Virus record (IMG/VR): IMGVR_UViG_3300037991_003957
Location: 1 to 34,696 of that record
Direction: 5' to 3' (one strand)
Length of the DNA: 34,696 nucleotides
From: a virus
Lineage: Duplodnaviria > Caudoviricetes
Shown here: positions 1 through 33,185 of the stretch, one piece after another
How positions within the stretch are numbered: the first letter of the stretch is position 1
Layout: the number at the start of each line of letters is the position of its first letter
Made by a program: the position numbers and the translations under genes
The notes under the pieces: model-generated
Seen by the model: only the letters and a program-made list of their open reading frames with translations
Database searches by the model: none
Told to the model about the DNA's origin: nothing

Positions 1-735
1 GCTTTAATAGGCGTCTCGATGACTGGGATCGGCTCGGGTACGGTGTTAGGATACGACATGAAGAAGGCCGCAAGTGTAGTCAAAAGAGAAAACGCAAGAG
101 TCGCGAAGCTGATTGGAATTAATCCAGCAGCACGATGTACAACTGTAAAGCCTGCAGGGACGACATCTCTTGCACTAGGAACGTCATCTGGTATACACGC
201 ATGGCATAATGATTATTATCTACGCAGGATCAGAGTTGGTAAAAACGAAAGTATATATAAATACTTATTTGAAAACCACCCAATGTTAGTTGAAGATGAA
301 TTTTTTAGACCTCATGACACTGCTGTGATTAGTATACCACAGAAAGCTCCGGCTGGATCTATACTTAGAACTGAATCACCTTTTCAATTACTTGAACGTA
401 TAAAAAAGGTTGCTATGGATTGGGTTGTACCTGGTCATAGAAAAGGATCTAACACTCATAATGTTTCTGCTACTGTTAGTTTAAAACCCGAAGAGTGGGA
501 AGACGCAGGAGAATGGATGTGGGTTAATAGAGATAGTTATAATGGACTTTCTGTTTTACCTTTTGATGGTGGCACTTATACTCAAGCTCCTTTTGAGGAT
601 ATTGACGAAGGAACTTATATAAATAGGTTGCAACATTTAAAAGATATAAATTTAAAGAATGTTATCGAAACTGAAGACAACACTGATCTTAGTGGTGAGC
701 TTGCTTGCGCTGGTGGTGCTTGTGAAATTAAGTAG
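1..735 (+). CDS. nrdJ: Class II (adenosylcobalamin-dependent) ribonucleotide reductase, C-terminal part, truncated by the window edge
   Basis: The frame is open from base 1 (ALIGVSMTGI...), so the ORF-track start at 19 is internal. It has the TTVKPAGTTS motif and the C-terminal redox-active pair in GELACAGGACEIK, typical of monomeric class II RNRs. Confidence 0.9.
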   Translation, partial: ALIGVSMTGIGSGTVLGYDMKKAASVVKRENARVAKLIGINPAARCTTVKPAGTTSLALGTSSGIHAWHNDYYLRRIRVGKNESIYKYLFENHPMLVEDEFFRPHDTAVISIPQKAPAGSILRTESPFQLLERIKKVAMDWVVPGHRKGSNTHNVSATVSLKPEEWEDAGEWMWVNRDSYNGLSVLPFDGGTYTQAPFEDIDEGTYINRLQHLKDINLKNVIETEDNTDLSGELACAGGACEIK

Positions 736-1345: not shown

Positions 1346-4300
1346 TTATTTAAAATCACTTTCGCTAAATAAATCACTATCAGAAGAGTCTTTAAATGAC
1401 ATCGTACTTGGATCCCATTCTAACTTGTTTTTTGTAGATGAACTATTTGTAGATTTTTTCTTCTTTTTAGGTTCTAACTGCCAAGTTGGCCAACCTAAAA
1501 CGTTAGCTATAGATTGCCATGTATCTATATTATCTGCAGTTGCATCTTTTAAATTATTTATTTTACTATACATTCTGTCTAAAGGTACATTACTAACAGC
1601 CGTTATAACCTTAGCCATAGATTCATAAGCTGGATTATCTAAACTAAATCCTTTATCAAATACCTCTGCTCTACGTTTTTTACTATCAAAAGGATAAGCA
1701 GCAGATTTAAACCTAGATAACTTACTTTTTATTGATGGTGAAAATTCTAATAACTTATAATAAGCGTCGGTATACTCTGGTCTTTTACGTGCTGATCTTT
1801 TATAAATATCTAAACCTAGGTTTTTCAATACTTGAAGAGTTACCCCTCCTAATCCTAAACCTCTAAGAGAAGAATCTAACATACCATTGACTGTATCTAT
1901 AGTCTTTTTATCTTTATCTTCATCGCTAAAATCATCACCAAAACCTAAAGCAAAAGCTCCTTGTTGTAACGCGTTAAACATTAAGTTTTGTAGAAATCCA
2001 TAATAAATAACCTTACTTAAATTAGCTTTCATATCACCTCTACCATTAGCTATATCTTGTATAGCTCTTTTTTGTATCCTTGCATATTGCATTGGTGTAT
2101 TAGCATATTGTAATATTATCCTACCTAAATCACCAGACTGTTGCATTGATATTTTACTAGGATCAGAAGACTGTTGAGACTTTTCAGACACTTGTCTAAA
2201 TTCTTTCATAGCTTGTGCTTCAGCTTCCTTAACAGACATTCCTTTTTTAACAAGATCATTTATTCTGTTTCTGTAAAACATTGCACCACCAGATGCTATA
2301 GCAAAACTATCAGCAAATTTTGTAGGTAAATAACCTTTTTCTAATATGTAGTTTAAAGCTGCTTTAGCCTTGTTCTTAGATGTTTTAGCAGCATCAGCTA
2401 TTTCAGATTCATTTATATTTAATTTTAAACCATTACGTCTGTCTTTTAAATAATCAGAGTTCATTAACTTAGTAAAATCTTTCCAGTATTGAGGTTGATT
2501 AGCAAAAGCTTTACCTGCCATAAGTGGATTATTAAAACTCCAATTAACAAAGTTAGCAGCTGAGATAGTTTGCAATAACGCTGATCTAGTATTAAAGAAC
2601 ATAGTAACACCCGTCGAGTTGTTTATATAATCCAATACTTGGTTGCTTAATCTATTACCTCCAGCAGTTCTATTACTACCGGATTTCATACGAGTAAGCA
2701 TGTTCTCCATAGCTTCTCTATATTTTCTACCATACGCTGCTTCAAGCTTGTTCATATTTTCTTTACTAAAAATAATATCAACATTTTCTTTCCACGGCTG
2801 TAAATATTTAGCTCTTTTAGTTTTATTAAGAACTTCAATAAGATCTGTTGTTATAGTTCCTATAGCCCAATCTTTTCCTGGTGTACTATATCCATCACCT
2901 TTTGTTATTTGAAATATTTGATCCGCAAACGCTTTTAATTTAGGATTATTTTCTACTATATCGTTTAATTCTTTTAAATCAGTTTTAGACAACCCAGGTG
3001 CTTCTTTACCTTCTTTACCCCACATATATACTCTTACAGCTTGTTCATTAGTAAAACCAGACTTAGTCTCTTTTCTAAGGTCTGCTGGTACATCTAATTC
3101 TTTTTTAAGCGCTTTAAAATCATTCATTAAGTTAACTCTGTCTGTAGATAAATTCTCAGTAGCTCTAGTATAAGGATCAAATAAATTTTCTTGATAAAAC
3201 TTTAATGCAGCTTCACCTTTTTTACCTTTAGGTAATGTAGCATATAATAACCCTAAGAAATCTTCAGCAGACGGTGGAATAAAAAATCTTTGCTTTCTAG
3301 CTTTATTACCTCTTATTTCGGCTTTAATATCTGAAAATATTTTTTCCGCTCCAATACCTGTTTTCTCTTCTAATATTTTATTAAACTCTTGACTTAGCTT
3401 TTCACTAGCATTCATTCTTGCTTGTTGTACTTGAGATTTAATATCTAATACTTCTAAAGCATCACGAACAGCTTTAACATTTTGAGGAGCATCATCAGCA
3501 AAGTAAAAATCATTATAACCTTCAGCTGCTTTACCAACTAGCCAATCAGCTTTTGCTTTACCAGTTGAGTTACCTAAACCTGTTATATTTTCTAATGGTA
3601 TATCAATACCCATTTGTTTTAAAAACTCATGTATAGCAGGTGCTGCTTCAGGTGCTCTAGCTGTTAATATAAATATATCTCTTTCACCTTTCGCTTCTTT
3701 CATTGTTTTCATTAAGTCAAACAATGGACCTTTACCACCTTCAGTTACTTTGTTAAAATCAGAGAAGTCCATTTCCCAACCTTTATCTATAAGATCTAAA
3801 CCTTCTTTAGCAAACTGTTCTGCGTTAAGTACTTTTCTCTTACCATCTTTAGTAGCAAACACTTTGTTTTTACTTGTACCAACTGTATCATCAAAGTCAA
3901 ATACTCTAATTTTTTTAGGTTCTTTTTTAACTTTCCTAGCATTAGCTAAAGCTTTATCAATAGTATTAGCTTTTTTAACTAAGTCATTGGTAGACATTTT
4001 CTCACTTAAATTAAGAACTGGAGATTCACTAAGCATTTTGTAATCAGCTTTAGTAGCTTCTAGTCTAGCAGGCGCATCTTTAATAGTTAGATCCATCATT
4101 TCTCTAGCTTCCTTAGCGCTCATTTTACCTATAAGTTGCTGATGTATTAAATGGTTTTGTATCTCTACTATGTTAGGATCGCTCTCTAATTTTCTAGGTA
4201 CCTCAACATTATATCTTTTAGCATCAGTCTCTCCAAACCTAGTTAGTTTGTTAGGATTTACATAACCACGATTAGAACCATATTCATTATACTTTCTAAT

Positions 4301-7300
4301 ATCTGGACTAATAACATCTTCCCATTTTCTTTTACCTTCTAAAGCTTCTTGTAATTGTCTTTCTAGTTCAGGATGTAGTTTATCTTTTGAAGCCCACTTA
4401 GGTAATTTAGAACCATCTTTAGCAAAATCTCTAGTTGGGTGATCTAGTATACTTCTAGAACTCCAAACTCCATTTCTAGGTCCCTGGTAATTACTAATTA
4501 CTTCTTGAGTATAATTATCGTGTAACCAATCTTTTAAATTATTCCATGTTTTTCCATCTTTAGTTATGCCTTGTAGTAGTAAATTAGAGTAAGCGCTAAA
4601 TGGTAACATGTGCTCTTCATATCTTATGTCTTTACCTATTTCTTTACCTACTATTGTTGCTAAATTTCTTAATGGATGAGAATTAGAATTAGGGTGCCAA
4701 AGCATGTAAGCAATAACATCTAGGTTTTTATTATCTTTTTCATAAGCGTCTCTAAAAATATCTAAAAATAAATCTTTTCCTTCTTTAATATCTTTCCAAT
4801 CAGCTTTATTACCGTTTATTTTATTTTCAGGATTTTTACTTAAAGTTTCTGGATTAACAACTCTATCCATTAACTTTATTTGTTCAGGAGTAAACTTGTT
4901 ATATTTTTCAGGATTACTTTTTATTATTTGTTTTATCTCTGTTTGAAAATCAGCAACCTGCATAGTTAATCCAGCATCTAAAGCTTCAAGTGTAGGCTGC
5001 ATTTCTTTTACAGCTTTATCTCTAGCTTGTTTCTTTGTGTAAATTAACTTACCTTCACTATCTTTTGCTTTCTCGTATCTTCTAGTTAAATTATCAACAC
5101 CGACTTCGTATTTTCCTACTAACGGAAACTTATCTTTAAATGCTTTTAATACATCCGCTCTAGAAGAAAATACACCTGATCCTATAAGTTTAGATCTTTT
5201 ACCATCATAGAAAAAGTTACCACCAATATCAAGTAGATCGCCGTACATAACTTTTTTTATTCTAGGTACTAACGCCTTTGAACCTAGTAATTGAGGTATA
5301 GATTTTATTCCTTTTTTATTTAGCGTTTCGTTAAATATTTTTTCTGAAGCTTGAAACTTGCTTGCACCAGCTTTTAAATCTGCTAATAATTGTTTTTTAG
5401 GTATAGCGGATTTAATATCCATACCTTCTATTTTCTTTCTTACAACTGTATTAGCTATTTGATAACCTTCTAACTTAGCAACTCCTTTAAGTAATTGACC
5501 AATGTTTCTATCATACTTATTTAATTGACCAGCTTCTGTAATACCTAATTCTTTTTGTACTTTAGCTATAGTCTCATTAGATATTTTACCTTTAAACTCT
5601 GGTTTTAATTCCCATATAGCAGGTTGACTAGTCAAACCTTTAGATCTTTTACCAGTTTTATTATAAAAAGTTTTTAATACTCTGTTGCTTATTCCAGTAC
5701 CGTATCCATATACATCCCTTGATACATCTAATTTTTCTAAACCAATGTTAGTCTCCATGTCACTAACGTTTGTTTTAGGTAAATTTTTAATAAAAGTTTC
5801 TACTTTGTTTTTATTAGAAAAAGCTTTTTGTATATTACCTGCTTCAGAAGGTTCTGGAATACCATCTTTAATTTTCTTAGCGTAAGTAAGATTTTTCTTT
5901 GGATCCATAATCTTAGCTTCAGGAACACCAAAAGCTATTGATGCGGCTTTACCTCCATAAGCTTCTCCTACTCCTTTAAAACCACCTGTACGCATGCCTA
6001 CAGCGTCTGCCTCTGTAAAGTCTATAGCGTCTTCAATTTCTTTTGCTTTAGGTTTTACATTTGGAGCCTCTAATGGATTTATTGTTTTAGTATCTTTAGT
6101 AGTTTCAGCTCTACCTGACTCTTTGTCAATAAGCGCTTCTTCAGGATTTAGATCTTTAGATTCAGCATCAAAACCTCTTTCACCCTCTTTAGTAGGCTGT
6201 TCTAGTCTAATTTCATTACCTTCAAATTGACCTTGCTTAGCTTTATCTAAAGCTTGTTTAAATCGTTGAGTCAAACGTTGATTCATGAACGCACCAAATG
6301 GTATTCTTTTACCATCAACAATAGGCTTGTACTCCCCTAATGCTTGAGAAAACTCAGCGTTAAATGCAGATACAAACTCTTTTTCAGAAATTCTTTTAGA
6401 TTTTTCTAAAGCTTGTATTCTAGGATTATTTGCTGCTCTATTAGCCCTAGCACTTATCATTGCGCTATTAGCTTTAGTTAATTCATCTTTAATTTGTTTT
6501 TTAAACTTAGGGTCTTTTATGTCTCTTACTCTTATATCACCACTCCCTTGATCAATAATTTTAGTTTCAATTTTTTCATTCGCATCCGAAGCAGCTTTAC
6601 TACCTTTAGATACTACTTTCTCTGAAGCTTGTAAACCAGTTGTTTCAGTTTCCACACCTAAAGCATCTGCTTCACGCTTTAAAAACTCATTAATGTTTTT
6701 ACTATTGTATTTACCACTCAGCACAAAATCTACAAACTTAATAGGATCGTTTAATGCGTCATTATACTCTTTTTCTGTAAGATCTTTAGTACTTTGTTTT
6801 TCACTAGATTTTCTTTGTGCCTCAGATTTTAAGTTATTAAAAGCACCATTTTCATTTAACTGTACAAATTCGTTAAGAAACTCTTTAAGTTCTGATAATG
6901 GTACTTCTTTACCTGAAATAATTTGTTCTAATACAGCGTCATTAAAACCAGGTCTTTTAGACATTTCAGCACTAACCATACTAAGTATACCTTTATCTTT
7001 TAAAGCTCCTATAAAGTTATCTAAATACTCTCTAGCTTCTTGCTCTGCTTGTTTTCTAGCTCCTTCTATATCTCTAGTATCTTTAGCTATAACTCTTGCT
7101 CTAGCTTCTATAGCTTCATCACCTATTCTTCTTTCAAATGGATGGTGCCATATTTCATGTACAGCTGTTCCACCAACATTTTCTCTAGCTGTAGCTTCTG
7201 TATTTACTAAAGCTATAGATTTTCCATTAACAACGCCTTGATAACCAAAACCAGTCGGACTAAAATTACCACCGTTTTCTTCCATGAACTTCTTCATTTC

Positions 7301-10300
7301 AGCATCGTTCATTTCTCTTATATCAAAGCCAGCTTCTTTGTATTCGTTAATTTCTTTTAACTCTTTACTAGTTCTTTCTACCTTGCCTTTTTCAATTAAA
7401 TCTTTTTTAGTTTTTAAAACAACGTCTAATTTAGAATCTATTTCATTTAATTGAGTTTCATAATCTGCTTTGTCTAATCTATTAGCTTCATAGTCTTTCT
7501 TTAATTTTTCTTTAGCACTTTCTAATCTACTTTCAGCTATTGATTCATCTATATATTTTTGAAAATTAGGATTATTAAGGTCACCTTGAAAACGTCTACT
7601 TGCTATATCTCTCATAGAGTAACTAAAGTCTACGACTCGTTGAGCTTGAGCTTTATCAAGTCCATATAACTCTAGCATTTTAAAACCAGAAGTTCCATCA
7701 CTAGTAAACGAAGCACCTTCTATTACAGCTAGGTTTTTAGCGTTAAAACCACCAATAGATATAGCATAAGCAGCTTGTTCTAGTTCTTTAAAACTACCCA
7801 TAACTTCTGGATTAGCTAGATCTTTAGCTAACACATCTAACGGTATTTTTAATTTTAACCTATTAGCATTAAACTCTAAGTTAGAGATTTCTTGTTTCTT
7901 TTGACTTTCGCTTTTATCACTTTCGTTTATTTCTTTTTTTCTCGTTTCTAAAGCTTCGTCTACTCTATTGCTAAAAGCTTCTTCTCCCTCTTTATATTCT
8001 TTACTACCGTCAGAAACAGTTTTCATCCCAAGAGATCTTCTGAGTTTATTCCATTGTGGGTTGTTTCCTCTTAATAAGTCTATTTCTGTTCTAAATCTTT
8101 CTATAGTTTGTTTACTATATCTATCTGGTCTAGATAGTCCTAAAAACAATAAAGCTCCACCTAACTCCATTAAATGAGCAGGATCTGTCACATCATTTAA
8201 AGCTTGTGAAACAGTCTTGTCTCCAGATAATACAGCTCCTACGTTATCAGCGGTGCTTATAGTTAAAGCACCTCCTGCAGCTCCAGCAATTTTACCACCA
8301 GCAGTAACGCTTAGTCTACTTGCTGATTTTAAACTTCTATCTACGATACTTCCTGTATATTTTAAAGCCCCGTTTTTAGTTGAAGCAGTGGTTGGTACTT
8401 GGTAAAAATATTCTAAAGCATTTCTTTGTGCGGCACTACCGTTTTCATATGTTTTTAATATAGCTTTGTTAAACTTATTAGAAGCTTGAGCGCCTTTTAA
8501 TCTTATTGCACTAGCTGTTAAAGCAAATAACTCTGGATTTTCTATACCCGGTCCAAAACCTAAACCTCTTTCCATTGCATTACTACCCTGTAGTCCAATA
8601 TACTCTGTCATCACAGCGCTAGTATATGAAGCAACGTTTTTAGCAACTCCTTTTGACACCCCAGATCTTAATAAACCTCTAAATGTAGCAGCTCTTAAAG
8701 CAGCAGGACCTAATCCAGCACCACCAGTTGCTACAGTTGTTAAGTATATTTCAGCTCCCATTCTAACTAAACCCGGTATAGATTTACCTGAGCTTTTCCA
8801 AAGATCATGTTCTATAGTAGCTAAATCTCTTACGTCTGAATCTGTCTTTTTTATACCATAAACATCTTCTATTATATCAAAACCTAATTCTCTAGATTTA
8901 TCTCTTGTTAATGGTGCGTTCATGCCAATAGCTTCTGGTGTAGCTTCACCAATGCCTTCTACAAATCTACCTACACCGGCTAAAAATCCATCACCTACAG
9001 TACTTTCGTAAGTTGTTGGATCTGCATTTAAACTTTGAGCCAATAGTAGTGTTGACCTATAATCTAATAAATCATTCCACCTGCTAGGTAGATTATCCTT
9101 AGCACTTGCATCATTCTCCAATAGAAAACTATCTTGATCAGACTGAGGTAATGGAGTAAGAAGAGAAGGCATTTCGCCTGTTTCAACCCATTTATTTATT
9201 TTTCTAAAGTCTTCAAAAGCACTACCCTCTGCTCCAACTAATTCTTGACCCAAAGCACCAAACAATTGAAAGTAAGTACTCTCATTCATAGTCTCACTTA
9301 ACCCTTTTCTTTTAAGATCTTTGGCAATGTTTAAAAGCTCTCTGTCAACATCAAGTAATTTTTCATCTAATTTATCAGGAGCTTCAAGAAGTAAATCCTT
9401 TAAATCGTTTTTCTTATTTTGATTTTTAAGATTAAGAGCATCTACCTGGTTTTGTCTATCTTTTCTAACAAACTTACCATCTTCTTTTAATAAACTAATC
9501 TCATCATCGTTTAAAAAATCTTGAAGCTTTTTATTGTAGTTTTTATATGCTAGTGTTTTTTCTTCACCAGCTTTCATTTTATCAATAGCTTGTTTTTCTG
9601 CAATTAAACTTTTTAATTGATCTTTACTTTTATAAAAAGGTAATTCAGCTTCTAATATTCTAGCGCCATCTTTTTTAGCTCTTTCAGTTCTATTATTTTG
9701 AACTGTTAAAGCTATAGCATCTTCTTCTGCTTTTAACTTAGCTTCTTCCTTAGTAAGAGTATTACCTTCTTTGTTTAATATATCTTTTTGTAATTTACTT
9801 ACTAATTCTTTATCTACACCTTTTTCTTTAACATTTTCAATTTCTTTTTCGTTCTCTTCTCTTTCACTTTTTTCATTAACATAGTCATTATATGCTAACA
9901 TTACTTGTTTACCCTTATTGTTAGGACCCCACTCTTGAGATCCATCTAGCCATTCCCTAATGTTATTTCTTATTTCTTGATTATCTTGAACAATCCCTCT
10001 AGCCGCGACAGATGATGGCCTAGTAATCATAGGATCTCCTGCATTAAAAGCCATTGGACTAGAAGAACCACCACCCGCTAAATAATCTAAAAATCCTATA
10101 TTATTTTTAGCACTAGCTCTAGCTGTAGCAACAACCTCCTTAGGCATCCCTAATTTTTCTAAAGTTTCTATAGTTTTGTTTAGTTCGTCATTAGACATAC
10201 GTCCTTCAGCATCACCGCTTATATTAGGGTTAAAACCTTGATTAAACAAAGATTTAGCTTCGTTTTGATAATCAAAATTTTCTTTAGCTTTTTTATTTTG

Positions 10301-10984
10301 TAAACCTTGTTGCCAAGCAATATTCATTTGTCCAAACTCAGTGTCTACAGCTATGTCTATAGCTTCCTCCATAGAATTAACTTGAGGATTCGATCTCATT
10401 ATCTCTATAGCTTTTTGAGTTAACCCAGGTGTTACTTGCATCTCAACATCTTGACCTTTATCGTTAGTAACCATATAATCAGGTCCTAATGTTCTTGCGT
10501 CATCTGAATTTTTATATTTGCCTTCCTTGTTAAATTTAGATTTATTAGCAAACTCTAAAAAATTTATATAGTCAGCTCTACTCTGGGCTTCTCTATCCGA
10601 AGCATCGCTAGGTATTCCTGAAGGAACGTTATTAGCTGATCTTGAGGCATTGTAATCTGTATTCATTCTCCATCTAAAAACCTCCCCATCTTCATTTGTG
10701 ACATCTAATTCATCATGTATATAACCACCTTTCATTACAGGTGTGTCAAAAGTTAAATATGGGTATTTAGCAGCTAGTTTTTTTTCTAAATCTTCTTCAG
10801 CATTATCAAAAGCACCTTCACCTTTAACATTCCACTCGTCAAAAGATATGTCATTACTAATAGGTGGAGGTGTATTATTAAAATCAATATCATTAAATAA
10901 ATCAATGTCTTCATCTTCTAATAATTCTCCCTCTACCCCAAATATGTCATCAAACAAGTTTATATCTTCTTCTTCGTCTTCCAT
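1346..10984 (-). CDS. Giant multidomain (polyvalent) putative ejection/internal virion protein with zincin, sigma-like, EHxxP and HAD modules
   Basis: 3212-aa ORF, last gene of the structural operon, after two ejection-like genes. Motifs: HEIWH (aa ~1276), YKP..IPFGAFMNQRL (aa ~1552), EEHMLP (aa ~2123) and FDFDDT/ILTAR/K/FADD (from aa ~2362). It also has Gly/Ala-rich hydrophobic segments. Confidence 0.8.
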   Translation of the reverse strand: MEDEEEDINLFDDIFGVEGELLEDEDIDLFNDIDFNNTPPPISNDISFDEWNVKGEGAFDNAEEDLEKKLAAKYPYLTFDTPVMKGGYIHDELDVTNEDGEVFRWRMNTDYNASRSANNVPSGIPSDASDREAQSRADYINFLEFANKSKFNKEGKYKNSDDARTLGPDYMVTNDKGQDVEMQVTPGLTQKAIEIMRSNPQVNSMEEAIDIAVDTEFGQMNIAWQQGLQNKKAKENFDYQNEAKSLFNQGFNPNISGDAEGRMSNDELNKTIETLEKLGMPKEVVATARASAKNNIGFLDYLAGGGSSSPMAFNAGDPMITRPSSVAARGIVQDNQEIRNNIREWLDGSQEWGPNNKGKQVMLAYNDYVNEKSEREENEKEIENVKEKGVDKELVSKLQKDILNKEGNTLTKEEAKLKAEEDAIALTVQNNRTERAKKDGARILEAELPFYKSKDQLKSLIAEKQAIDKMKAGEEKTLAYKNYNKKLQDFLNDDEISLLKEDGKFVRKDRQNQVDALNLKNQNKKNDLKDLLLEAPDKLDEKLLDVDRELLNIAKDLKRKGLSETMNESTYFQLFGALGQELVGAEGSAFEDFRKINKWVETGEMPSLLTPLPQSDQDSFLLENDASAKDNLPSRWNDLLDYRSTLLLAQSLNADPTTYESTVGDGFLAGVGRFVEGIGEATPEAIGMNAPLTRDKSRELGFDIIEDVYGIKKTDSDVRDLATIEHDLWKSSGKSIPGLVRMGAEIYLTTVATGGAGLGPAALRAATFRGLLRSGVSKGVAKNVASYTSAVMTEYIGLQGSNAMERGLGFGPGIENPELFALTASAIRLKGAQASNKFNKAILKTYENGSAAQRNALEYFYQVPTTASTKNGALKYTGSIVDRSLKSASRLSVTAGGKIAGAAGGALTISTADNVGAVLSGDKTVSQALNDVTDPAHLMELGGALLFLGLSRPDRYSKQTIERFRTEIDLLRGNNPQWNKLRRSLGMKTVSDGSKEYKEGEEAFSNRVDEALETRKKEINESDKSESQKKQEISNLEFNANRLKLKIPLDVLAKDLANPEVMGSFKELEQAAYAISIGGFNAKNLAVIEGASFTSDGTSGFKMLELYGLDKAQAQRVVDFSYSMRDIASRRFQGDLNNPNFQKYIDESIAESRLESAKEKLKKDYEANRLDKADYETQLNEIDSKLDVVLKTKKDLIEKGKVERTSKELKEINEYKEAGFDIREMNDAEMKKFMEENGGNFSPTGFGYQGVVNGKSIALVNTEATARENVGGTAVHEIWHHPFERRIGDEAIEARARVIAKDTRDIEGARKQAEQEAREYLDNFIGALKDKGILSMVSAEMSKRPGFNDAVLEQIISGKEVPLSELKEFLNEFVQLNENGAFNNLKSEAQRKSSEKQSTKDLTEKEYNDALNDPIKFVDFVLSGKYNSKNINEFLKREADALGVETETTGLQASEKVVSKGSKAASDANEKIETKIIDQGSGDIRVRDIKDPKFKKQIKDELTKANSAMISARANRAANNPRIQALEKSKRISEKEFVSAFNAEFSQALGEYKPIVDGKRIPFGAFMNQRLTQRFKQALDKAKQGQFEGNEIRLEQPTKEGERGFDAESKDLNPEEALIDKESGRAETTKDTKTINPLEAPNVKPKAKEIEDAIDFTEADAVGMRTGGFKGVGEAYGGKAASIAFGVPEAKIMDPKKNLTYAKKIKDGIPEPSEAGNIQKAFSNKNKVETFIKNLPKTNVSDMETNIGLEKLDVSRDVYGYGTGISNRVLKTFYNKTGKRSKGLTSQPAIWELKPEFKGKISNETIAKVQKELGITEAGQLNKYDRNIGQLLKGVAKLEGYQIANTVVRKKIEGMDIKSAIPKKQLLADLKAGASKFQASEKIFNETLNKKGIKSIPQLLGSKALVPRIKKVMYGDLLDIGGNFFYDGKRSKLIGSGVFSSRADVLKAFKDKFPLVGKYEVGVDNLTRRYEKAKDSEGKLIYTKKQARDKAVKEMQPTLEALDAGLTMQVADFQTEIKQIIKSNPEKYNKFTPEQIKLMDRVVNPETLSKNPENKINGNKADWKDIKEGKDLFLDIFRDAYEKDNKNLDVIAYMLWHPNSNSHPLRNLATIVGKEIGKDIRYEEHMLPFSAYSNLLLQGITKDGKTWNNLKDWLHDNYTQEVISNYQGPRNGVWSSRSILDHPTRDFAKDGSKLPKWASKDKLHPELERQLQEALEGKRKWEDVISPDIRKYNEYGSNRGYVNPNKLTRFGETDAKRYNVEVPRKLESDPNIVEIQNHLIHQQLIGKMSAKEAREMMDLTIKDAPARLEATKADYKMLSESPVLNLSEKMSTNDLVKKANTIDKALANARKVKKEPKKIRVFDFDDTVGTSKNKVFATKDGKRKVLNAEQFAKEGLDLIDKGWEMDFSDFNKVTEGGKGPLFDLMKTMKEAKGERDIFILTARAPEAAPAIHEFLKQMGIDIPLENITGLGNSTGKAKADWLVGKAAEGYNDFYFADDAPQNVKAVRDALEVLDIKSQVQQARMNASEKLSQEFNKILEEKTGIGAEKIFSDIKAEIRGNKARKQRFFIPPSAEDFLGLLYATLPKGKKGEAALKFYQENLFDPYTRATENLSTDRVNLMNDFKALKKELDVPADLRKETKSGFTNEQAVRVYMWGKEGKEAPGLSKTDLKELNDIVENNPKLKAFADQIFQITKGDGYSTPGKDWAIGTITTDLIEVLNKTKRAKYLQPWKENVDIIFSKENMNKLEAAYGRKYREAMENMLTRMKSGSNRTAGGNRLSNQVLDYINNSTGVTMFFNTRSALLQTISAANFVNWSFNNPLMAGKAFANQPQYWKDFTKLMNSDYLKDRRNGLKLNINESEIADAAKTSKNKAKAALNYILEKGYLPTKFADSFAIASGGAMFYRNRINDLVKKGMSVKEAEAQAMKEFRQVSEKSQQSSDPSKISMQQSGDLGRIILQYANTPMQYARIQKRAIQDIANGRGDMKANLSKVIYYGFLQNLMFNALQQGAFALGFGDDFSDEDKDKKTIDTVNGMLDSSLRGLGLGGVTLQVLKNLGLDIYKRSARKRPEYTDAYYKLLEFSPSIKSKLSRFKSAAYPFDSKKRRAEVFDKGFSLDNPAYESMAKVITAVSNVPLDRMYSKINNLKDATADNIDTWQSIANVLGWPTWQLEPKKKKKSTNSSSTKNKLEWDPSTMSFKDSSDSDLFSESDFK

Positions 10985-13766: not shown

Positions 13767-15692
13767 TTATTCTGATGATTTAACATATTTAGAAGAAACC
13801 GCATATAATTCTTTCATTCCTCCTACATCTGTAGTATTATCTGTTTTCATAGCTATTGTAGTAAAATATCCTTTTATACCACTCATTGAAGCCCCAAAAA
13901 CTACTTCTCCGTTAAAAGGTGGAGAATTATTAATTAAATTTGCACAGTATTTGTTTTCTTTTAAATAAAAACCACCGTATGCTGGCATTTGTGTATTAGG
14001 ATTTATATATTCTCCTTCTGTGTAACTATGAATTTTCTTTATTAAATCACCTGTTGAAAACCATGATAATAAAGAATTATAGGGGTGTAGTTTTTCTGTA
14101 AAATCACTGTACATTGAAGAAACCTCCCAACCGTTAGTCCCTTCGTAGCTTACAGTTTGAAAGTTCTTAACCATAGAAGGTTGCGGGTTAAATATGAATT
14201 CTATACGAGAGTCATATTGTACTCCATAAAAATTAGCTCTATTGTTAACAGTGTCTACATAATGTTGATATAGTTCAAAGTTGTTTGAAGAGTAAAAATT
14301 ATTTTTCAAGCTATCTATAAAAACAGGTTTATAATCATAAAAGCTTACCCAACCATTTATGGCTTCATCAAAACTTAAAGTATCGTAATTTATGTTTGGA
14401 TTACAACTTGTCGAAGATTCATAGTCTTGTATTGAAATAACATAGTTTTGATTATAAGTATCAAAACCACCAATAATTTTATCTTTATTATAACTGATAA
14501 ATTGTATTGATTTAGGCCAACCTGAAAGACCATACGTGGAAGGCTTCCACCTTTGAGAAGCTGTTATTGTACAGTTATTGCCGCCAGATTGTACATTAAC
14601 CACAAATATATTAGGTATTTCAACTCCATTTATAGAAATATATGATCCTATTTTAATATTTTCACATGGACAATCTTCATTATTAGTTATTTCAAAAAGA
14701 ATTATAGAGTCATCTATAGATTGGTCATTAGAATAACTATAAGATAACAAAGACCGTATTTGAGTATCGTTAACAGTGGCTAAAGTATCTCTAAAGTAAT
14801 CTGTCATTCCATAAGAAGATATTTGAGTTAAGCCATCTCTTGATAATCTTAATATACAACTTCTAAATCTGTCAGAAAAATATTGCCTTAAACCAAACTG
14901 AGCCCAAGATTCTGGGTTTGTACTAATACCAAATTCACCTGCATAAGGAACTATTTGTCCAATTACAACCTTTAACGAGGTAACTGGAGTGCCTTCCCCT
15001 TCAGCAGAATATATAGCATCTTTGTCTATTAAAGCTTTACTTACTTTATTTTCTTGAAATATAGTTAAATTAGTATTGTAAGCATATAATTTTTGTATAC
15101 TTCCACTTTCAGGATCTACTGATTTTGTTATAGAGCCCTCAGCAGTTGAAAATAAGTTAGTGTTGTTTACTCCTGTTCTAGAATTATAAATACCTGAGTA
15201 TATCAAAGTATTAAAACGATGTTGCTGTAAATTTTCATCTTCTACTAAGTAAGCTTTAGCGCCAAAATCAACAGTTGTATTATTAAAACCACCTCTTATT
15301 CTAGCTTCTTCTACAAACCAATTTCTTTCGAAACCAATTTCCACAGTAGGGTTTCTACCTATTAAACTACCGCCGCAACTAGGTAGTGTAAGTCCACCTG
15401 TGTAAGAATTCCAATCTCTTCCACCAAAAGGAAAACAAGGGTAATTTTTCAAAACATTAACATTGCCTGGATTAGGTTGAGATAATTCATCACCCCACGG
15501 TACACCTGGCCATGTAGGCAATATGTAATTACCATTAGTCCAGCCTCCTTTTACTGTAGTAGTAACTGTTGACTCATAATCATACGTTCCACCAGCAGCT
15601 ACTATTGTGTCTTCTGGATTTGCTTGAGTGTCTCCTACAGCTTTTTTAAGCCAAAAGGAATTAAAATACTTAATTGGTTGTTGAAAAGCCAT
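13767..15692 (-). CDS. Tail stabilisation/muzzle protein, C-terminal-type part
   Basis: 641 aa, beta-rich. The segment IYSGIYNSRTGVNNTNLF...GSIQKLYA...IFQENKV...GQIVPYAGEFGIS resembles the beta-propeller region of crAss-like muzzle / P22 gp10-like proteins (recognised by eye). Confidence 0.65.
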   Translation of the reverse strand: MAFQQPIKYFNSFWLKKAVGDTQANPEDTIVAAGGTYDYESTVTTTVKGGWTNGNYILPTWPGVPWGDELSQPNPGNVNVLKNYPCFPFGGRDWNSYTGGLTLPSCGGSLIGRNPTVEIGFERNWFVEEARIRGGFNNTTVDFGAKAYLVEDENLQQHRFNTLIYSGIYNSRTGVNNTNLFSTAEGSITKSVDPESGSIQKLYAYNTNLTIFQENKVSKALIDKDAIYSAEGEGTPVTSLKVVIGQIVPYAGEFGISTNPESWAQFGLRQYFSDRFRSCILRLSRDGLTQISSYGMTDYFRDTLATVNDTQIRSLLSYSYSNDQSIDDSIILFEITNNEDCPCENIKIGSYISINGVEIPNIFVVNVQSGGNNCTITASQRWKPSTYGLSGWPKSIQFISYNKDKIIGGFDTYNQNYVISIQDYESSTSCNPNINYDTLSFDEAINGWVSFYDYKPVFIDSLKNNFYSSNNFELYQHYVDTVNNRANFYGVQYDSRIEFIFNPQPSMVKNFQTVSYEGTNGWEVSSMYSDFTEKLHPYNSLLSWFSTGDLIKKIHSYTEGEYINPNTQMPAYGGFYLKENKYCANLINNSPPFNGEVVFGASMSGIKGYFTTIAMKTDNTTDVGGMKELYAVSSKYVKSSE

Positions 15693-15696
15693 AATT

Positions 15697-15710
15697 TATA
15701 ATTACTTGTT
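15697..15710 (-). promoter_or_regulatory. Candidate phage promoter motif AACAAGTAATTATA
   Basis: Intergenic, directly upstream of the 641-aa gene; 12/14 identical to the intergenic copy at 22752-22765. Confidence 0.4.
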
Positions 15711-15731
15711 TATTAATTTTTCTACCTTTGA

Positions 15732-16283
15732 CTAATACCTACATCCACCTTGTTGATATACTGCAATATCTTGATCACCACTGTTGTATGGTATATCTAT
15801 AGGCAAATCCCACTCAAAACTTAACCCATCTCCATTTCTGTCCGTTGCTGCCAAAGTAACTACATATCTTCCAGGTGGAACTCCATTAAGCTGAACAGAA
15901 TAATTATCTGGTGAAAGAGTATTAAAATATTCATTTAAACCAGACACGAATGGAGAAATCGCAGGGTTTCCACAATGTAAAGCACCTTGTCTAGGAAGAG
16001 TCGCAGGAAAACTAGTTCCTGCCATAAAAGTGGATCGGTTTGGCCCTGTTTCAGCAAAAAATCTCGCGTTATTATTATCTCTAGGAAGTCCAGCTTTCAC
16101 GAGTGGCAAACCAGGTTCATTTTGCGTAAGCACCAATCCACCTGTGTAATAAGCGTAACCTCCAGAATTATAAATAAACTCATCGTCAACCTCATACTCC
16201 TCATAACACCTAAAATCATGTCCCGCCGCGCAAGTGGTTCCAATACAACTTTTGCTTTCGGTCCTAAATGATGATAAAAGGTA
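15732..16283 (-). CDS. Probable C-terminal continuation of the large tail protein in the -1 frame
   Basis: The frame is open from 16283 (after TAA 16286-16284) and reads ...SSFRTESKSCIGTTCAAGHDFRCYEEYEVDDEFIYNSGGYAYYTGGLVLTQNEP.... Its composition matches the upstream protein, and it ends in an Ig-like PPGRYVVTLAATD strand. Confidence 0.65.
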   Translation of the reverse strand, partial: YLLSSFRTESKSCIGTTCAAGHDFRCYEEYEVDDEFIYNSGGYAYYTGGLVLTQNEPGLPLVKAGLPRDNNNARFFAETGPNRSTFMAGTSFPATLPRQGALHCGNPAISPFVSGLNEYFNTLSPDNYSVQLNGVPPGRYVVTLAATDRNGDGLSFEWDLPIDIPYNSGDQDIAVYQQGGCRY

Positions 16284-19200
16284 TTATAACCATTTTGCAG
16301 TTGCATCATATCTAAACCCATTGGATTTGGGAATGCAGCTTGTTGGTCCGCTAACCATCTTAAATCTGGCCAATAATGTAGATTATTATTGTGTTTTTTA
16401 CCTACTCTACTTTCTCCACCATTGGCGTCAATTAATTGATTAGCATCAAAGTCCCAATATATAGGACTAGTTGGTATACCATCTACTAATTCGTTTTGCC
16501 CAGTAACACTGTTTGCGGCTGGAATGTAATTATTATAACCAAATATTATCTCTAAAGGACCACAATCACCACAACCTGGGTTTGCACCTGAACTAAAACC
16601 TAACCACAATGGTTGATCCCAAGAATAAGTAAAATCACCTATTGATGTTGAAGCATATGTTGATTTACGATCTGGTGATCCATTACCTAAATACATACTA
16701 ACTTGATACATTCTTTTAACTGTATATTTCATTTGACCGCCATTGAAAGCTGAGTATGGAGAAGGAGTGTTGGGGTTTGATCCATAAGATCCATTAGCAG
16801 CTTCAAATTGATATTCATCTTCGCCTTGAGTGTTAAAAGTAATTGCATCATCATCAGAACATCCGGCACCATAATAAATTGGGTTAGGAACACGACCATC
16901 AGGGCATAGAAAAGATCTTGTCCAATTATACAAGTTTAGCCCTGCACCACCATGGACTGGCCCACCCCACCATGGGTCACGTCCAAACTGTTGCTTGATA
17001 CCATCTCCGTTTGTATTTACCTTGTTTGTTATAAAGTCGTCTTGAGATATTATACGACCATAAGGCACCACTTGATATCCAAAGTTTTCATCTGTATTAC
17101 ATTCTTCACCACTCATCCAATTAGGTATAATACCACCCCCACTAGGAGTAAGTAATCCTGTTCTGTTGTATACAGCATCTTTTATTTGTTGTCTAGTATA
17201 ACCAACCCCAGTTCCTTCTACAGGTGTTTCATTAGTTATAAAACCTTCTTCTTCAAAGTCTAGCACTATATTAGGGTTAGTTCCAAGAGGATCTTGATGT
17301 TTTAGTCTTAGCGTAAATGTATATTGATTTTTATCATTTCTTTGCCAACACATAAATCCATAGTTGTTATCACGATCATATGGTGCTATTTTTAACTGAT
17401 ATTCACCAGTATTCACACCTTGTTCTTCTAACTCAAACTGTAGACTTACATCTTGACCATCTCCCCTCATTACTTTAACTAATTCAATTGTACAAGAATT
17501 ACCTAAACCTTGACCATATGCTCCTGCTCCTTCAAAAGTCCTTGAAATATATGTTCCATAACCATCACCTTCAGACCAACTTATATTAGTTCTTGTTAGT
17601 CCTACTGGAGTACCATTATCTTCGTTTTTTATACTTTCATTTAATTCAGATATTAATCCAGATGTTGTAGTTTCCCAAAATATATCTAATAAAGATTCTA
17701 CAGGCTTTGTTTCATAAACTGCTAAACAAGGTCCTACAGGATAAGGCTCGTCGCATGGCGTAGGTAGCGTGGTAACTGTAGCTGCTTCTATACCAAACTT
17801 ATTATTAACTTCAACTCTACCAATCAAAGGATTTGTTTCAGCTTGATAAAAACAAGATGGAAGCGTGGGCTCTATTGGATTAATAACTAAATCCCCTAAT
17901 CTTAATTTAGTCATATTTCCTATTTGAACAACTGTATCTGGATTGCTTCCGGGATCATATTGTTTGTTGCTTTGAGTTTTAGAACCAGCAGCAAAGTCAT
18001 CATCTACAAATACATTTACCCTACCAAACAACTGTTGAGAACTTCTAAATTTTTCAGTAAGTGGACCAACATCTTGTAAATCTTTAGGTACTTTATTTAT
18101 ATTATCACCAAACAGCACTATATGTGAAGTATGATTTGTTTGTAGTTTAGGATATTCAAATTTAACAGTGGGAAAAACTTGAGAACCTGTTGTAGTAACG
18201 GTATCCGACGGATCTGTTATGCCAATTGTTTCAGGTTCTTCTCCTTCTTGTTCACAAGGGTATCCAGCTAAAGCTCCAGGGAGATATACATTGTAATATT
18301 CTTGTTGTGTTTGTTTAATTACAAACTTATAACTATACCATCCTAATGGGTTGTCTATAGCTGTTACTACAAATCCACTTATACTTTGTCCTTCTAGGTT
18401 TTCACAACCAGGTAATATTGGTATATTAGTTAATGTTCCTTGAAAAGCTTGACCTGATAACCAACCAGAACCACTACTAATTACAACAATATCTATAATG
18501 TCTGTGCCTTGAACTGAAAATTGTATAGTAGCAGTAGGACCACTTCCACTTTTAACCGCGCCTTCAATTGTAACAGTATATGGCCCACATGGACCACCAA
18601 CAATTCCATTAGTTATTTCTACTTCTTCAACAGCTGTTATAGTACCATCCGCTACGCTGTATATTCCAGGATAACCATCTTGTGTTTTTAACTCAGGTAT
18701 AATACTCCAAAATGTAGCGCTTATTTGGTCTCCTGGCCAAGAATATGGAGCACTTGGTCCTTGAGTAATATTACTACTTAAATTTTCCCATTTAGGATAT
18801 TTATCTTCTAATATGTGGTCTTCTGTTGACGCATATCTATGGTAAAATGTAGATCCATTATACCCTGGAACAGTAGTATTTATAATGCTAGACAATATTA
18901 CATTAGATTGCCTTCCATATCTATCTGATAAAATTATACCAACTTGATATGTTCTATTTTGTTTTAAAGTGTGGTTTTGATATTCTTTTCTTACGTAGTA
19001 ATCTGAGTTTTCAAATATAGGTTGGCTGTTAACAGGTAAACTTACTTTTTCATTTGCTTGAATACTATAGTTTAAATTTATAGGTGAACTATGCTTGTCT
19101 ATAAAATTTCCATAAATAATTCTATTTCCAGAAGAGGCTTGAGACAAAGCTCTTATAGGTACAATATCAGTTACTCTGGTAGTTTGTACTGGAGGTAGTG

Positions 19201-20584
19201 TTTTCCAAGGTTTTCTACTTTGATAATTATAAGTTAAAATATTTTGTTGTAAATTAGAAAAATCATTTTGAGTTAAAGTATCTATTATAGTTGTTTTATT
19301 AGATCCAGCATCTTTATAAAGTATATCTACTTCAGTTATTTTTAACTTTTCAAAAGCTTCAGACCACAACATTGAGTTATTAGAGTTGCCAGTTGTAGGA
19401 GAAGGTATGTTTAAAATTATATCATTAATTTTATTTTGCATAAACTTAACAACTGTAGAATCATAGGTTTCTCCTTCTTGTCCAACTTGCGCTTGTAAGC
19501 CACCTTGGCCAGTTGTTGTGCTATTTATTGCGTTGTCACCAATAAAATAACCATCTTGCTCTGGTACAAAAGCTATTTGAGTAAATGGTGCCGATAAAGA
19601 ATATTCACCATCAACAAATTTAAATCTATAACTAAATCGTACAAATTTGTCTTTTAAAAACACAGGGTCACCAGGCCAAGAATCAACGTAATCTGGATTT
19701 TGCCTTTGGAAATAAACAATATCAGCAGGAAGTATTTCTGCAGCTATATCAGCAGGTACAGAAATAGTTGTTTGGTTCCCCGAAAAAGAAATTGACTCTA
19801 CATAGCAATTTTTAATTTTTATTTTATTACTTGTTAAAACATCTCCATTACTTATATTAGCACCTGGGGTATTTGGCATTATATTAGTATAATGTCCTTC
19901 TAAAACGACATTGCCCCCATTTACAGATGCAACTAATGCTGCAGCGTGAATAGGTAAATACTCACTAACAACGTCTCTCATTGAAGACTCGTAACGATAG
20001 TTTTGATTACTATTTTCAGTCTTATTTAATAATAATATAGGAGCATATGGATAATATTTAGCTACTGATATTTGATCTTCAGTAGTATAGTATCCAGGTT
20101 GCGCTAAGTTTACATTAATTTTTCTAGGTTGATTTCTGTTGTCTGTAAAAAATAATAAATCTTCTATTAAAGTAACTCCAATTACAGGATGTGTTTTTGA
20201 AAAGTTTAAAAAAGAACCTTCTACAAGAATTTCAAAACCAGTAGTTAATACGTTATAAGATATTATGTAAGAATTAACATTGAAACCTGCAGAATTATGA
20301 GATAGTTGATCAGGTGAAGAATCTGTATAATTTGTGATAAAAAGAAATATAGTATCTAAGGTATCTGCCATTAAGTGACCAATTATTTCAATGTTATCCC
20401 CAGACAAATTAAAATTGTTAATAAGAGAATTTCCCAATACGTTTTCTAACGCTCCTACATCATCTCCTTCAGATTTACTTATTTGAATATTTCTTCCATC
20501 TCTATATTGACCATTGGGGATAATTCTACCGTCCATATCTTTATTCATTTTGGACTGGATAAATGTATTTTTTACTTCTGGCAT
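16097..20584 (-). CDS. Large tail stabilisation/muzzle protein, N-terminal-type part (frameshifted near its 3' end)
   Basis: N-terminus NTFIQSKMNKDMDGRIIPNGQYRDGRNIQIS and LLFFTDNRNQPRKIN, FSYRFKF, RIIYGNF, YQVGIILSDRYGR resemble crAss-like muzzle proteins. The last ~60 aa look out of frame. Confidence 0.7.
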   Translation of the reverse strand: MPEVKNTFIQSKMNKDMDGRIIPNGQYRDGRNIQISKSEGDDVGALENVLGNSLINNFNLSGDNIEIIGHLMADTLDTIFLFITNYTDSSPDQLSHNSAGFNVNSYIISYNVLTTGFEILVEGSFLNFSKTHPVIGVTLIEDLLFFTDNRNQPRKINVNLAQPGYYTTEDQISVAKYYPYAPILLLNKTENSNQNYRYESSMRDVVSEYLPIHAAALVASVNGGNVVLEGHYTNIMPNTPGANISNGDVLTSNKIKIKNCYVESISFSGNQTTISVPADIAAEILPADIVYFQRQNPDYVDSWPGDPVFLKDKFVRFSYRFKFVDGEYSLSAPFTQIAFVPEQDGYFIGDNAINSTTTGQGGLQAQVGQEGETYDSTVVKFMQNKINDIILNIPSPTTGNSNNSMLWSEAFEKLKITEVDILYKDAGSNKTTIIDTLTQNDFSNLQQNILTYNYQSRKPWKTLPPVQTTRVTDIVPIRALSQASSGNRIIYGNFIDKHSSPINLNYSIQANEKVSLPVNSQPIFENSDYYVRKEYQNHTLKQNRTYQVGIILSDRYGRQSNVILSSIINTTVPGYNGSTFYHRYASTEDHILEDKYPKWENLSSNITQGPSAPYSWPGDQISATFWSIIPELKTQDGYPGIYSVADGTITAVEEVEITNGIVGGPCGPYTVTIEGAVKSGSGPTATIQFSVQGTDIIDIVVISSGSGWLSGQAFQGTLTNIPILPGCENLEGQSISGFVVTAIDNPLGWYSYKFVIKQTQQEYYNVYLPGALAGYPCEQEGEEPETIGITDPSDTVTTTGSQVFPTVKFEYPKLQTNHTSHIVLFGDNINKVPKDLQDVGPLTEKFRSSQQLFGRVNVFVDDDFAAGSKTQSNKQYDPGSNPDTVVQIGNMTKLRLGDLVINPIEPTLPSCFYQAETNPLIGRVEVNNKFGIEAATVTTLPTPCDEPYPVGPCLAVYETKPVESLLDIFWETTTSGLISELNESIKNEDNGTPVGLTRTNISWSEGDGYGTYISRTFEGAGAYGQGLGNSCTIELVKVMRGDGQDVSLQFELEEQGVNTGEYQLKIAPYDRDNNYGFMCWQRNDKNQYTFTLRLKHQDPLGTNPNIVLDFEEEGFITNETPVEGTGVGYTRQQIKDAVYNRTGLLTPSGGGIIPNWMSGEECNTDENFGYQVVPYGRIISQDDFITNKVNTNGDGIKQQFGRDPWWGGPVHGGAGLNLYNWTRSFLCPDGRVPNPIYYGAGCSDDDAITFNTQGEDEYQFEAANGSYGSNPNTPSPYSAFNGGQMKYTVKRMYQVSMYLGNGSPDRKSTYASTSIGDFTYSWDQPLWLGFSSGANPGCGDCGPLEIIFGYNNYIPAANSVTGQNELVDGIPTSPIYWDFDANQLIDANGGESRVGKKHNNNLHYWPDLRWLADQQAAFPNPMGLDMMQLQNGYNTFYHHLGPKAKVVLEPLARRDMILGVMRSMRLTMSLFIILEVTLITQVDWCLRKMNLVCHS

Positions 20585-32372: not shown

Positions 32373-32644
32373 CTGCTCCTCCCTTCAGCAAAACCTTTAA
32401 AAGTTTTTTCTTCTTTTTCTTTTTTAGGTTTTTCACTTAACTTTTCCTCTTCTTCTTGTATTCTAGTAAGTATTTCAAAAGCGTCAAATATAGCTAATTT
32501 TTTTGTTGCAGCTGCGTTTTTTAATCTATCAGCTGTAACATCTTCACCTGTATCCACAATAGGTTCTTTAGCTACTTTTATTAATTCTTTAACTGCTAAC
32601 TGCCCAGCTTGTATTATATTCTTCTTCGTCTCCTTTATATTCAT
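32369..32644 (-). CDS. terS: Putative terminase small subunit
   Basis: 91-aa helical protein with a 4-nt overlap (ATGA) with terL. Confidence 0.55.
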   Translation of the reverse strand: MNIKETKKNIIQAGQLAVKELIKVAKEPIVDTGEDVTADRLKNAAATKKLAIFDAFEILTRIQEEEEKLSEKPKKEKEEKTFKGFAEGRSR

Positions 32645-33185
32645 GTTTTACTAGTATATCTTTTGATTTCATACAATATAATAATTCATTATCTATGACA
32701 AACTCCCATTGTCTTAGATCTGGAAAACTAACTAAATCCCCTTCAAATAAATTTAATGATTCTAGTTGTTCATTTCCATATTTTAATATACCTAGATTAG
32801 GAATTATTTTTTCTCCTAATTTTTTAGATTTTAAAGGTTTTATAAAACACCTGTTTAAAAAAGCTTTATTAACACCATTATTATATAAATAAATTTGATC
32901 TGGAGAGCAAAAATATAAATCTTCTTTAAAGTAAGATCTACTGTTTTGTTGTTTACCCTTCATATTATAAAATCTTCTAAAAACGTTATGGTGAATATAT
33001 ACTAAATCACCTTTATTAATAGGGAAATTATATGCTTTGGGAACACTAACTACAATAGCTTTTTTACTTATAATTTTAAATTGTTCTATTTTAGTATTTA
33101 AAATTAACTCTTTATCTCCAACTTTTTTTTTATTATTATATCTTTCTTCACATGGTTTAACTATATAGTCATATAAACTATTCAT
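32589..33185 (-). CDS. GroES-like co-chaperonin with apparently two tandem domains
   Basis: Two GroES-like patterns: YIVKP...IVVSVP...KGDLVYIH and CFIKP...GILKYG...EGDLVSF...FVIDNELLYCMKSKDIL. Confidence 0.55.
   Translation of the reverse strand: MNSLYDYIVKPCEERYNNKKKVGDKELILNTKIEQFKIISKKAIVVSVPKAYNFPINKGDLVYIHHNVFRRFYNMKGKQQNSRSYFKEDLYFCSPDQIYLYNNGVNKAFLNRCFIKPLKSKKLGEKIIPNLGILKYGNEQLESLNLFEGDLVSFPDLRQWEFVIDNELLYCMKSKDILVKHEYKGDEEEYNTSWAVSS

Follow-up and report, generated by a model that had tools for sequence, protein, structure and literature searches.

Phage-type polyvalent proteins join unrelated domains in one chain, carry an embedded HExxH zincin with a distal Glu, and are encoded in a late-gene context; autoproteolytic release of their domains was proposed in 2017 (Iyer et al., PMC5512222). 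The accessible text of that paper names no cleavage or junction motif, and the words "sigma", "linker" and "interdomain" are absent from its main text. In crAss-like phages, which have a muzzle-type tail, giant cargo proteins (phi14:2 gp65-gp67 and crAss001 gp45-gp50) are ejected after partial unfolding, and gp65 contains a zincin; the accessible text of the two sources maps no sites in them (10.1101/2020.03.07.982082; PMC10172136). Fused crAss-like polyproteins are thought to be cleaved, with autoproteolysis as the proposal (10.1101/2020.03.07.982082). In prohead-protease maturation by gp245 of SPN3US, head and ejection proteins carry repeats of one short motif, at which a phage enzyme cuts (PMC10052503). 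A 2026 structure paper on N4 mentions an HExxH domain, and the strings "proteoly" and "peptidase" do not occur in its available text (PMC13434306); further related papers are PMC9024508 and PMC7824862. In the accessible literature, supplements and most subscription papers aside, we found neither a junction code nor mapped cleavage sites described, and the targets of zincins in phage polyvalent proteins have been an open proposal since 2017. Here we describe a 3212-residue modular protein encoded in the virus record IMGVR_UViG_3300037991_003957 (34,696 bases, 54% complete; hereafter the window), in which four short words at the joints between modules supply exact candidate sites. The words are probably the places at which the chain would be cut by the zincin-like domain that it contains, a reading drawn from sequence comparison.

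The protein has the marks of a polyvalent protein. Several biochemically unrelated domains (zincin, sigma-2 fold, HAD phosphatase and further modules) share one polypeptide, its gene lies among virion genes with lineage-specific turnover of domains, and conservation and predicted structure give its zincin the three-stranded sheet, HExxH helix and later Glu helix described for zincin-like metallopeptidases (PMC5512222). It differs from the crAss-like cargo, which includes a virion RNA polymerase, whereas here there are an Asp-rich motif in the HAD fold and a sigma-like transcription part. In SPN3US the protease is a separate protein that acts on many head proteins and, according to the accessible text, mostly removes N-terminal propeptides (PMC10052503); the sites of the window protein are internal, belong to that protein alone and vary along with its zincin. 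Two cultured Bacteroidota podophages encode similar proteins: elemoA gp90 (3694 aa) shares gene order and a homologous zincin, and the structural protein gp74 of Gundel_1 (2482 aa) shares an HExxH and a weak match to the C-terminal domain (E 4e-3). Both differ in carrying other cargo domains (DUF3293; a weak GNAT match), and a literature search found no study of the processing of either.

The original prediction placed four related hexamers in the open reading frame (ORF) that runs from 10984 to 1346 on the minus strand, and all four are present there: LQASEK (junction 1, aa 1451-1456, 6617..6634) at the joint of the zincin and the sigma-like module; FQASEK (junction 2, aa 1877-1882, 5339..5356) at the joint of the sigma-like module and a variable cassette, the point at which cassettes are swapped; LNLSEK (junction 3, aa 2324-2329, 3998..4015) ahead of the phosphatase module; and MNASEK (junction 4, aa 2524-2529, 3398..3415) ahead of the C-terminal domain. 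That the words mark module boundaries is upheld by module limits from BLAST in 80 loci, by low-confidence segments of the AlphaFold models at all four sites, and by the junctions of homologues. In the models all four sites lie in or at the end of segments with a predicted local distance difference test (pLDDT) score below 50. Junction 1 falls within such a segment at aa 1445-1460, the sole linker of low confidence that separates domains in the aa 1196-1625 model. In the aa 1641-2640 model these segments make up 188 of 1000 residues; there junction 2 is at the end of aa 1855-1881, just before a predicted helix, junction 3 is in coil within aa 2313-2334, and junction 4 is in coil.

Repetition within this one protein does not carry the argument. 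The four hexamers have a sum-of-pairs score of 112. Local shuffling of the protein gave a best set of four that scored higher in 40 of 40 cases (116-136), so no support is drawn from within-protein significance; the real protein, too, has ten other sets with higher scores (122-130). The three-residue core of the word occurs seven times against 1.8 expected. The use of TCA for Ser in copies 1 and 2 and AGT in copies 3 and 4 had been taken to favor selection on the peptide, and this argument holds between the two pairs only, because 16 of the 18 bases agree between copies 1 and 2.

The evidence that carries the case comes from homologues. A scan with the C-terminal domain matched 271 stretches, and the best 80 of them were taken further; the zincin anchor is present in 76 sequences including the window (five partial loci without it and the fragment L058 were dropped), and removal of near-duplicates above 70% zincin identity left 53 rows. 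Two further scans gave 47 loci, from which open or C-truncated ORFs and exact repeats were dropped. Segment BLAST of the 80 loci gives a fixed order of zincin, sigma-like module, variable cassette, optional HAD module and C-terminal domain, with limits at the motif positions. The family word has Ser at its center in 84% of sites (Ala in 8%), Phe or Ala before it and Lys or Glu after it. Counted without the motif, Ser stands three residues ahead of the start of the C-terminal domain in 38 of 53 homologues and Ala in five, and in 18 of 20 the sigma module closes with a Gly-to-Ser spacing of seven, which control windows show in 3-5 of 20.

Around this common core each protein has its own dialect. 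The seven residues before the C-terminal domain, taken by position, were scored on each protein's other joints, and the protein's own word did better than foreign words at junctions 1, 2 and 3, in line with the prediction of protein-specific repeats at the same joints. In the linker after the zincin (junction 1) the scores are 15.5 for own and 11.8 for foreign words (n=30 zincin clusters, p<1e-4), and in the window before the HAD module (junction 3) they are 15.8 and 9.9 (n=24, p<1e-4); both excesses hold at three clustering levels, also with 14 and 12 clusters. At junction 2 the scores are 12.9 and 9.7 (n=20, p 2.5e-4; n=10, p 0.03), and two control windows give no own-word excess (p 0.36-0.95). 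Junction 1 was replicated on the new loci, whose zincins are unlike those of the first set (14.2 vs 11.8, n=16, p 0.003; n=10, p 0.017). Common descent with drift would not predict the own-word excess. The cultured phage elemoA may have a junction dialect too: by eye, three similar Arg-x-Gln words come after the zincin of its gp90 (L084:64-11148) and set the segments beyond it apart.

The prominence of Ser, and its place just ahead of a predicted helix at junction 2, might instead mean that it caps a helix, in a structural role, where each module begins, or that it acts as nucleophile in an N-to-O acyl shift that needs no protease. In the models, however, only one of the four sites is at a helix N-cap, the acyl shift is impossible in one clade because Ala there replaces Ser, and neither idea explains protein-specific dialects; we find both barely credible.

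The word also follows the zincin. Word similarity correlates with zincin similarity once C-terminal-domain similarity is accounted for (partial rho 0.20, p 5e-4, n=53), and the reverse comparison with the C-terminal domain, given the zincin, shows nothing (partial rho -0.01, p 0.55, n=53), the C-terminal domain being adjacent to the word and the zincin about 1,100 residues from it. Zincin and C-terminal-domain similarities are themselves uncoupled (rho 0.04, n=53). L002 and L003, whose C-terminal domains start with 91% identity, have different words, and a seven-row zincin clade (support 97) has one common dialect in the 53-row zincin tree, a quick version in which 19 of 50 inner branches are open. 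Where the zincin is missing the word weakens. Four distinct full-length homologues lack it (L087, L088, L109 and L114), and on a held-out family profile they score -0.3 at junction 1 and -1.8 at junction 4, compared with 4.0 and 6.2 for 23 zincin-bearing proteins; the nominal p values (0.002, 0.016) overstate the difference because the zincin-less set represents about two lineages.

Co-variation with the zincin and loss alongside it are accounted for equally well if the words are docking tags, which the zincin binds without cutting during folding, packing or ordered ejection, while it cuts peptidoglycan, host proteins or nothing. This is the strongest rival because the virion RNA polymerase of N4 is packaged whole: its HExxH region is required for encapsidation and the protein is described as uncut (PMC5512222), a precedent that also counts directly against self-cleavage. 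Peptidoglycan digestion has been proposed for the zincins of phi24B gp47 (10.64898/2026.04.10.717836) and phi14:2 gp65 (10.1101/2020.03.07.982082). Pure binding, however, would not need the general-base Glu and the distal ligand Glu that are invariant in 53 of 53 rows, nor does it call for sites exactly between enzyme modules, and we regard docking as unlikely.

Self-cleavage by the zincin must also be set against reading of the words by another protease, whether a prohead protease of the phage or one supplied by the host. Three of the four window words fit the Ala-X-Glu rule of SPN3US gp245 (PMC10052503), and an incomplete genome is consistent with such an enzyme. Prohead substrates, however, would be expected to keep an acidic P1 across sites and to show it on capsid or portal propeptides, whereas Glu follows Ser in 16% of the family sites only, and the hexamer pattern is absent from all 14 other proteins of the window's virion module, capsid and portal included. 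No protease annotation was found among the 19 window proteins scanned, and the word follows a zincin that reassorts against the C-terminal domain. An outside protease is thus very improbable.

Cassettes are exchanged at the word, as the original prediction of swappable cassettes implied. Among 30 pairs whose sigma modules end alike but whose cassettes are unrelated, pairs that are non-independent and were placed on the Ser by profile, identity is 1.0 at Ser, 0.2 at the next residue and 0.03 at the one after, so that exchange occurs directly after Ser. L003 has five copies of its own word, one of them at an extra cassette that is also found in L018 and L053; by eye, the carrier's own dialect stands at the entry in L003 and L053, not in L018. 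At the end of the extra cassette the HAD tail is duplicated, which points to homologous insertion.

Such exchange raises the possibility that the words are by-products of recombination, short repeats that anchor crossovers and are homogenized by conversion, with no role as peptides. The coincidence of cassette limits with the word, the likeness of copies 1 and 2 (16 of 18 bases) and the duplicated HAD tails all agree with this, and the last two indicate that DNA-level copying contributes, to the cost of a purely peptide-based account. Copies 3 and 4, however, use the other Ser codon box, and conversion would neither link the word to the zincin over an adjacent domain nor fade it on zincin loss. 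Repeats of 12-18 bases are also short as crossover anchors. Recombination as the whole explanation is improbable.

Under self-cleavage, a single chain would be packed and then ejected. Its zincin, which stays attached to the N-terminal part, would cut at or beside the small residue (Ser, or Ala in one clade) and free four downstream modules: the sigma-2-like module, the nuclease-like cassette, the Pnkp-type phosphatase and the C-terminal domain. By analogy with N4, cutting after ejection is the preferred timing. A swap would retain a cuttable joint because the new cassette inherits the upstream half of the word, and drift in the preference of the zincin would draw all joints to a new dialect. 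Packaging is likely, given the position of the gene and the syntenic elemoA "structural protein"; for packaging and ejection together, we infer them from that synteny and from crAss001 cargo biology (PMC10172136). The predicted limits of five parts were confirmed, though not all parts would be free effectors: the N-terminal part and the zincin would stay joined because no site was found between them. Joints, protein-specific repeats, cassette swaps at the motif, zincin tracking and weakening on zincin loss speak for the self-processing polyprotein that had been predicted; its within-protein and codon arguments are weak alone. By comparison among homologues, the feature itself is real and well supported.

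Several observations weigh against self-cleavage. Cleavage of proteins of this family was not found in any data located. The correlation of word and zincin is modest (0.20), the sigma module also correlates with the word given the zincin (0.12, p 0.0015), and nearest C-terminal-domain neighbors share the word slightly better than nearest zincin neighbors do (15.2 vs 14.1). Junction 3 was not replicated on the new loci (n=8, p 0.21), and it is absent or displaced by about 20 residues in many homologues. Zincin-bearing L097, L101, L102, L104 and L117 score at or below zero at junction 4, junction-4 words are also low in zincin-bearing L062, L066 and L076 of the own/foreign set, and L002, with Glu for the first zincin His, still keeps its word. 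In the structural models, low pLDDT would be expected wherever the alignment is mosaic, and the model is truncated at junction 4. A complex prediction of the zincin (aa 1196-1443) with Zn and a 32-residue junction-2 peptide scored 0.00 and speaks for neither side.

If self-cleavage is true, it accounts for the delivery of several unrelated activities by a single ejected chain and for cassette exchange that leaves processing intact. Dialect pairs offer a built-in test of specificity, with the natural zincin-less forms as a control. The marine phage group is widespread, as the number of stretches matched in one scan indicates. In the wider picture, which we hold to be somewhat favored, the polyprotein that marine Bacteroidota podophages inject would cut itself, its protease and its words would evolve together into private dialects, and the places where it is cut would also be those where effector cassettes are exchanged. 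Such a system would be a phage counterpart of polyprotein processing in RNA viruses: at entry it would set free a sigma-like factor, a nuclease and a phosphatase for RNA repair. It would also amount to a natural library of protease-site pairs that are orthogonal to one another.

The giant protein (1346..10984, minus strand), a predicted cargo protein, is the last gene of the virion module of a marine podophage related to Pachyviridae/Elemovirus. The minus strand of the window also encodes a terminase (TerL), a portal, a crAss-type muzzle and further structural genes. The portal matched 87 phage records, mainly Flavobacterium and Cellulophaga phages, at identities below 60%. Gene order is that of Flavobacterium phage elemoA, whose last structural gene, for the 3694-aa "structural protein", occupies the slot of the 3212-aa ORF.

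The N-terminal part (aa 1-1195, 7400..10984, minus strand) is highly divergent by segment BLAST and has no junction word; in homologues this part contains the family word no more often than background (0.46 per 1000 residues). No transmembrane segment emerged from hydropathy, and the N-terminal part has no 19-residue window above 1.3. The zincin-like domain (aa 1196-1442, 6659..7399, minus strand) has its HExxH at aa 1276-1280 (7159-7145) and its distal residue at Glu1368 (6883-6881). Both His are kept in at least 90% of the rows, and the predicted structure (aa 1196-1625) runs from three strands to the HExxH helix to the Glu helix. The domain matches the elemoA zincin (probability 95%, E 3.8e-8). 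Pfam matches are weak (Peptidase_M78 in 3 of 53 rows, DUF3267 in 3 of 53), Pfam LPD families have no match to the 3212-aa protein, and the nearest Atlas clusters carry LPD23, LPD1 and LPD5, with LPD23 on 18-20% of members (score 0.91-0.93). Since the model covers zincin and sigma-like domain together, its list of solved-structure matches is filled by the latter. Among variant zincins, Glu replaces the first His in L002, and in L007 and L060 the two His are separated by four residues, which PMC5512222 also notes as a variant.

Predicted folds bear out the sigma-like and HAD labels. The sigma-like module (aa 1457-1876, 5357..6616, minus strand) contains a stretch, aa 1469-1586, whose model matches the sigma region-2 fold: the best structural match is SigB (Z 8.0, a borderline value for a helical bundle; root-mean-square deviation (rmsd) 2.5, 89 aligned), and sigma factors fill most top rows. 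The C-terminal half of the module received no fold assignment. The region-4 helix-turn-helix of sigma-70 was not seen in a search with the 1000-residue model, which the HAD domain dominates. The HAD phosphatase module (aa 2330-2523, 3416..3997, minus strand) matches phrog_415 (E 7.5e-6), and the predicted fold of aa 2355-2510 is closest to the T4 Pnkp 3' phosphatase (Z 10.0, rmsd 2.7, 120 aligned). The conserved C-terminal domain (aa 2530-3212, 1349..3397, minus strand) is 50-90% identical in 80 loci. A profile search of the whole protein gave no match to a two-barrel RNA polymerase; the sole similar motif lies within the HAD fold, and the folded models cover aa 1196-1625 and 1641-2640. Sequence searches of solved structures with both alignments gave nothing below E 0.04, Foldseek on both models gave no match at E<=0.001, and tblastn of zincin and sigma-like module against cultured phages gave no match.

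The variable cassette (aa 1883-2323, 4016..5338, minus strand) is defined by homologue comparison and has an invariant Glu2124-His2125 pair, conserved in 18 rows. We take it to be nuclease-like from its resemblance to an HNH-type motif, the one basis for the label. A Pfam scan of 65 cassette segments gave no match to the window cassette, a fold search gave none, and recognition in the Atlas is low. In L073 and L087 the cassette has, by eye, what we take to be a PD-(D/E)xK-like signature instead of the Glu-His type, which suggests nucleases of two folds in one slot. A count of cassette types was abandoned: clustering chained 41 of 53 cassettes into one group, probably via flanking sequence, so no number is claimed.

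Four homologues (L005, L024, L057 and L072) have DUF6934 as the cassette. A zincin-less homologue, L089:5824-12124, is split within the cassette into two ORFs (1337 and 737 aa). A P-loop kinase, recognized by the AAA_33 and Zeta_toxin profiles (E ~1e-11 to 1e-14), is located within the HAD module or next to it at L024:7697-10009, L029:8879-10000, L041:8891-10009 and L042:6935-10018; by these profile matches, kinase and HAD module form a Pnkp-like kinase-phosphatase pair in those four proteins. Elsewhere in the window, the muzzle gene (13767-20584, minus strand) is spread over two long ORFs, of 1495 and 641 aa, which match the start and the later part of one family (phrog_14478; crAss_MUZ, MUZ_C) and are separated by an ORF of 134 aa; this state may be a real split, frameshifts or assembly errors. 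The end of a ribonucleotide reductase gene (1-735, plus strand) and a GroES-like gene (32589-33185, minus strand) are ordinary in this phage group.

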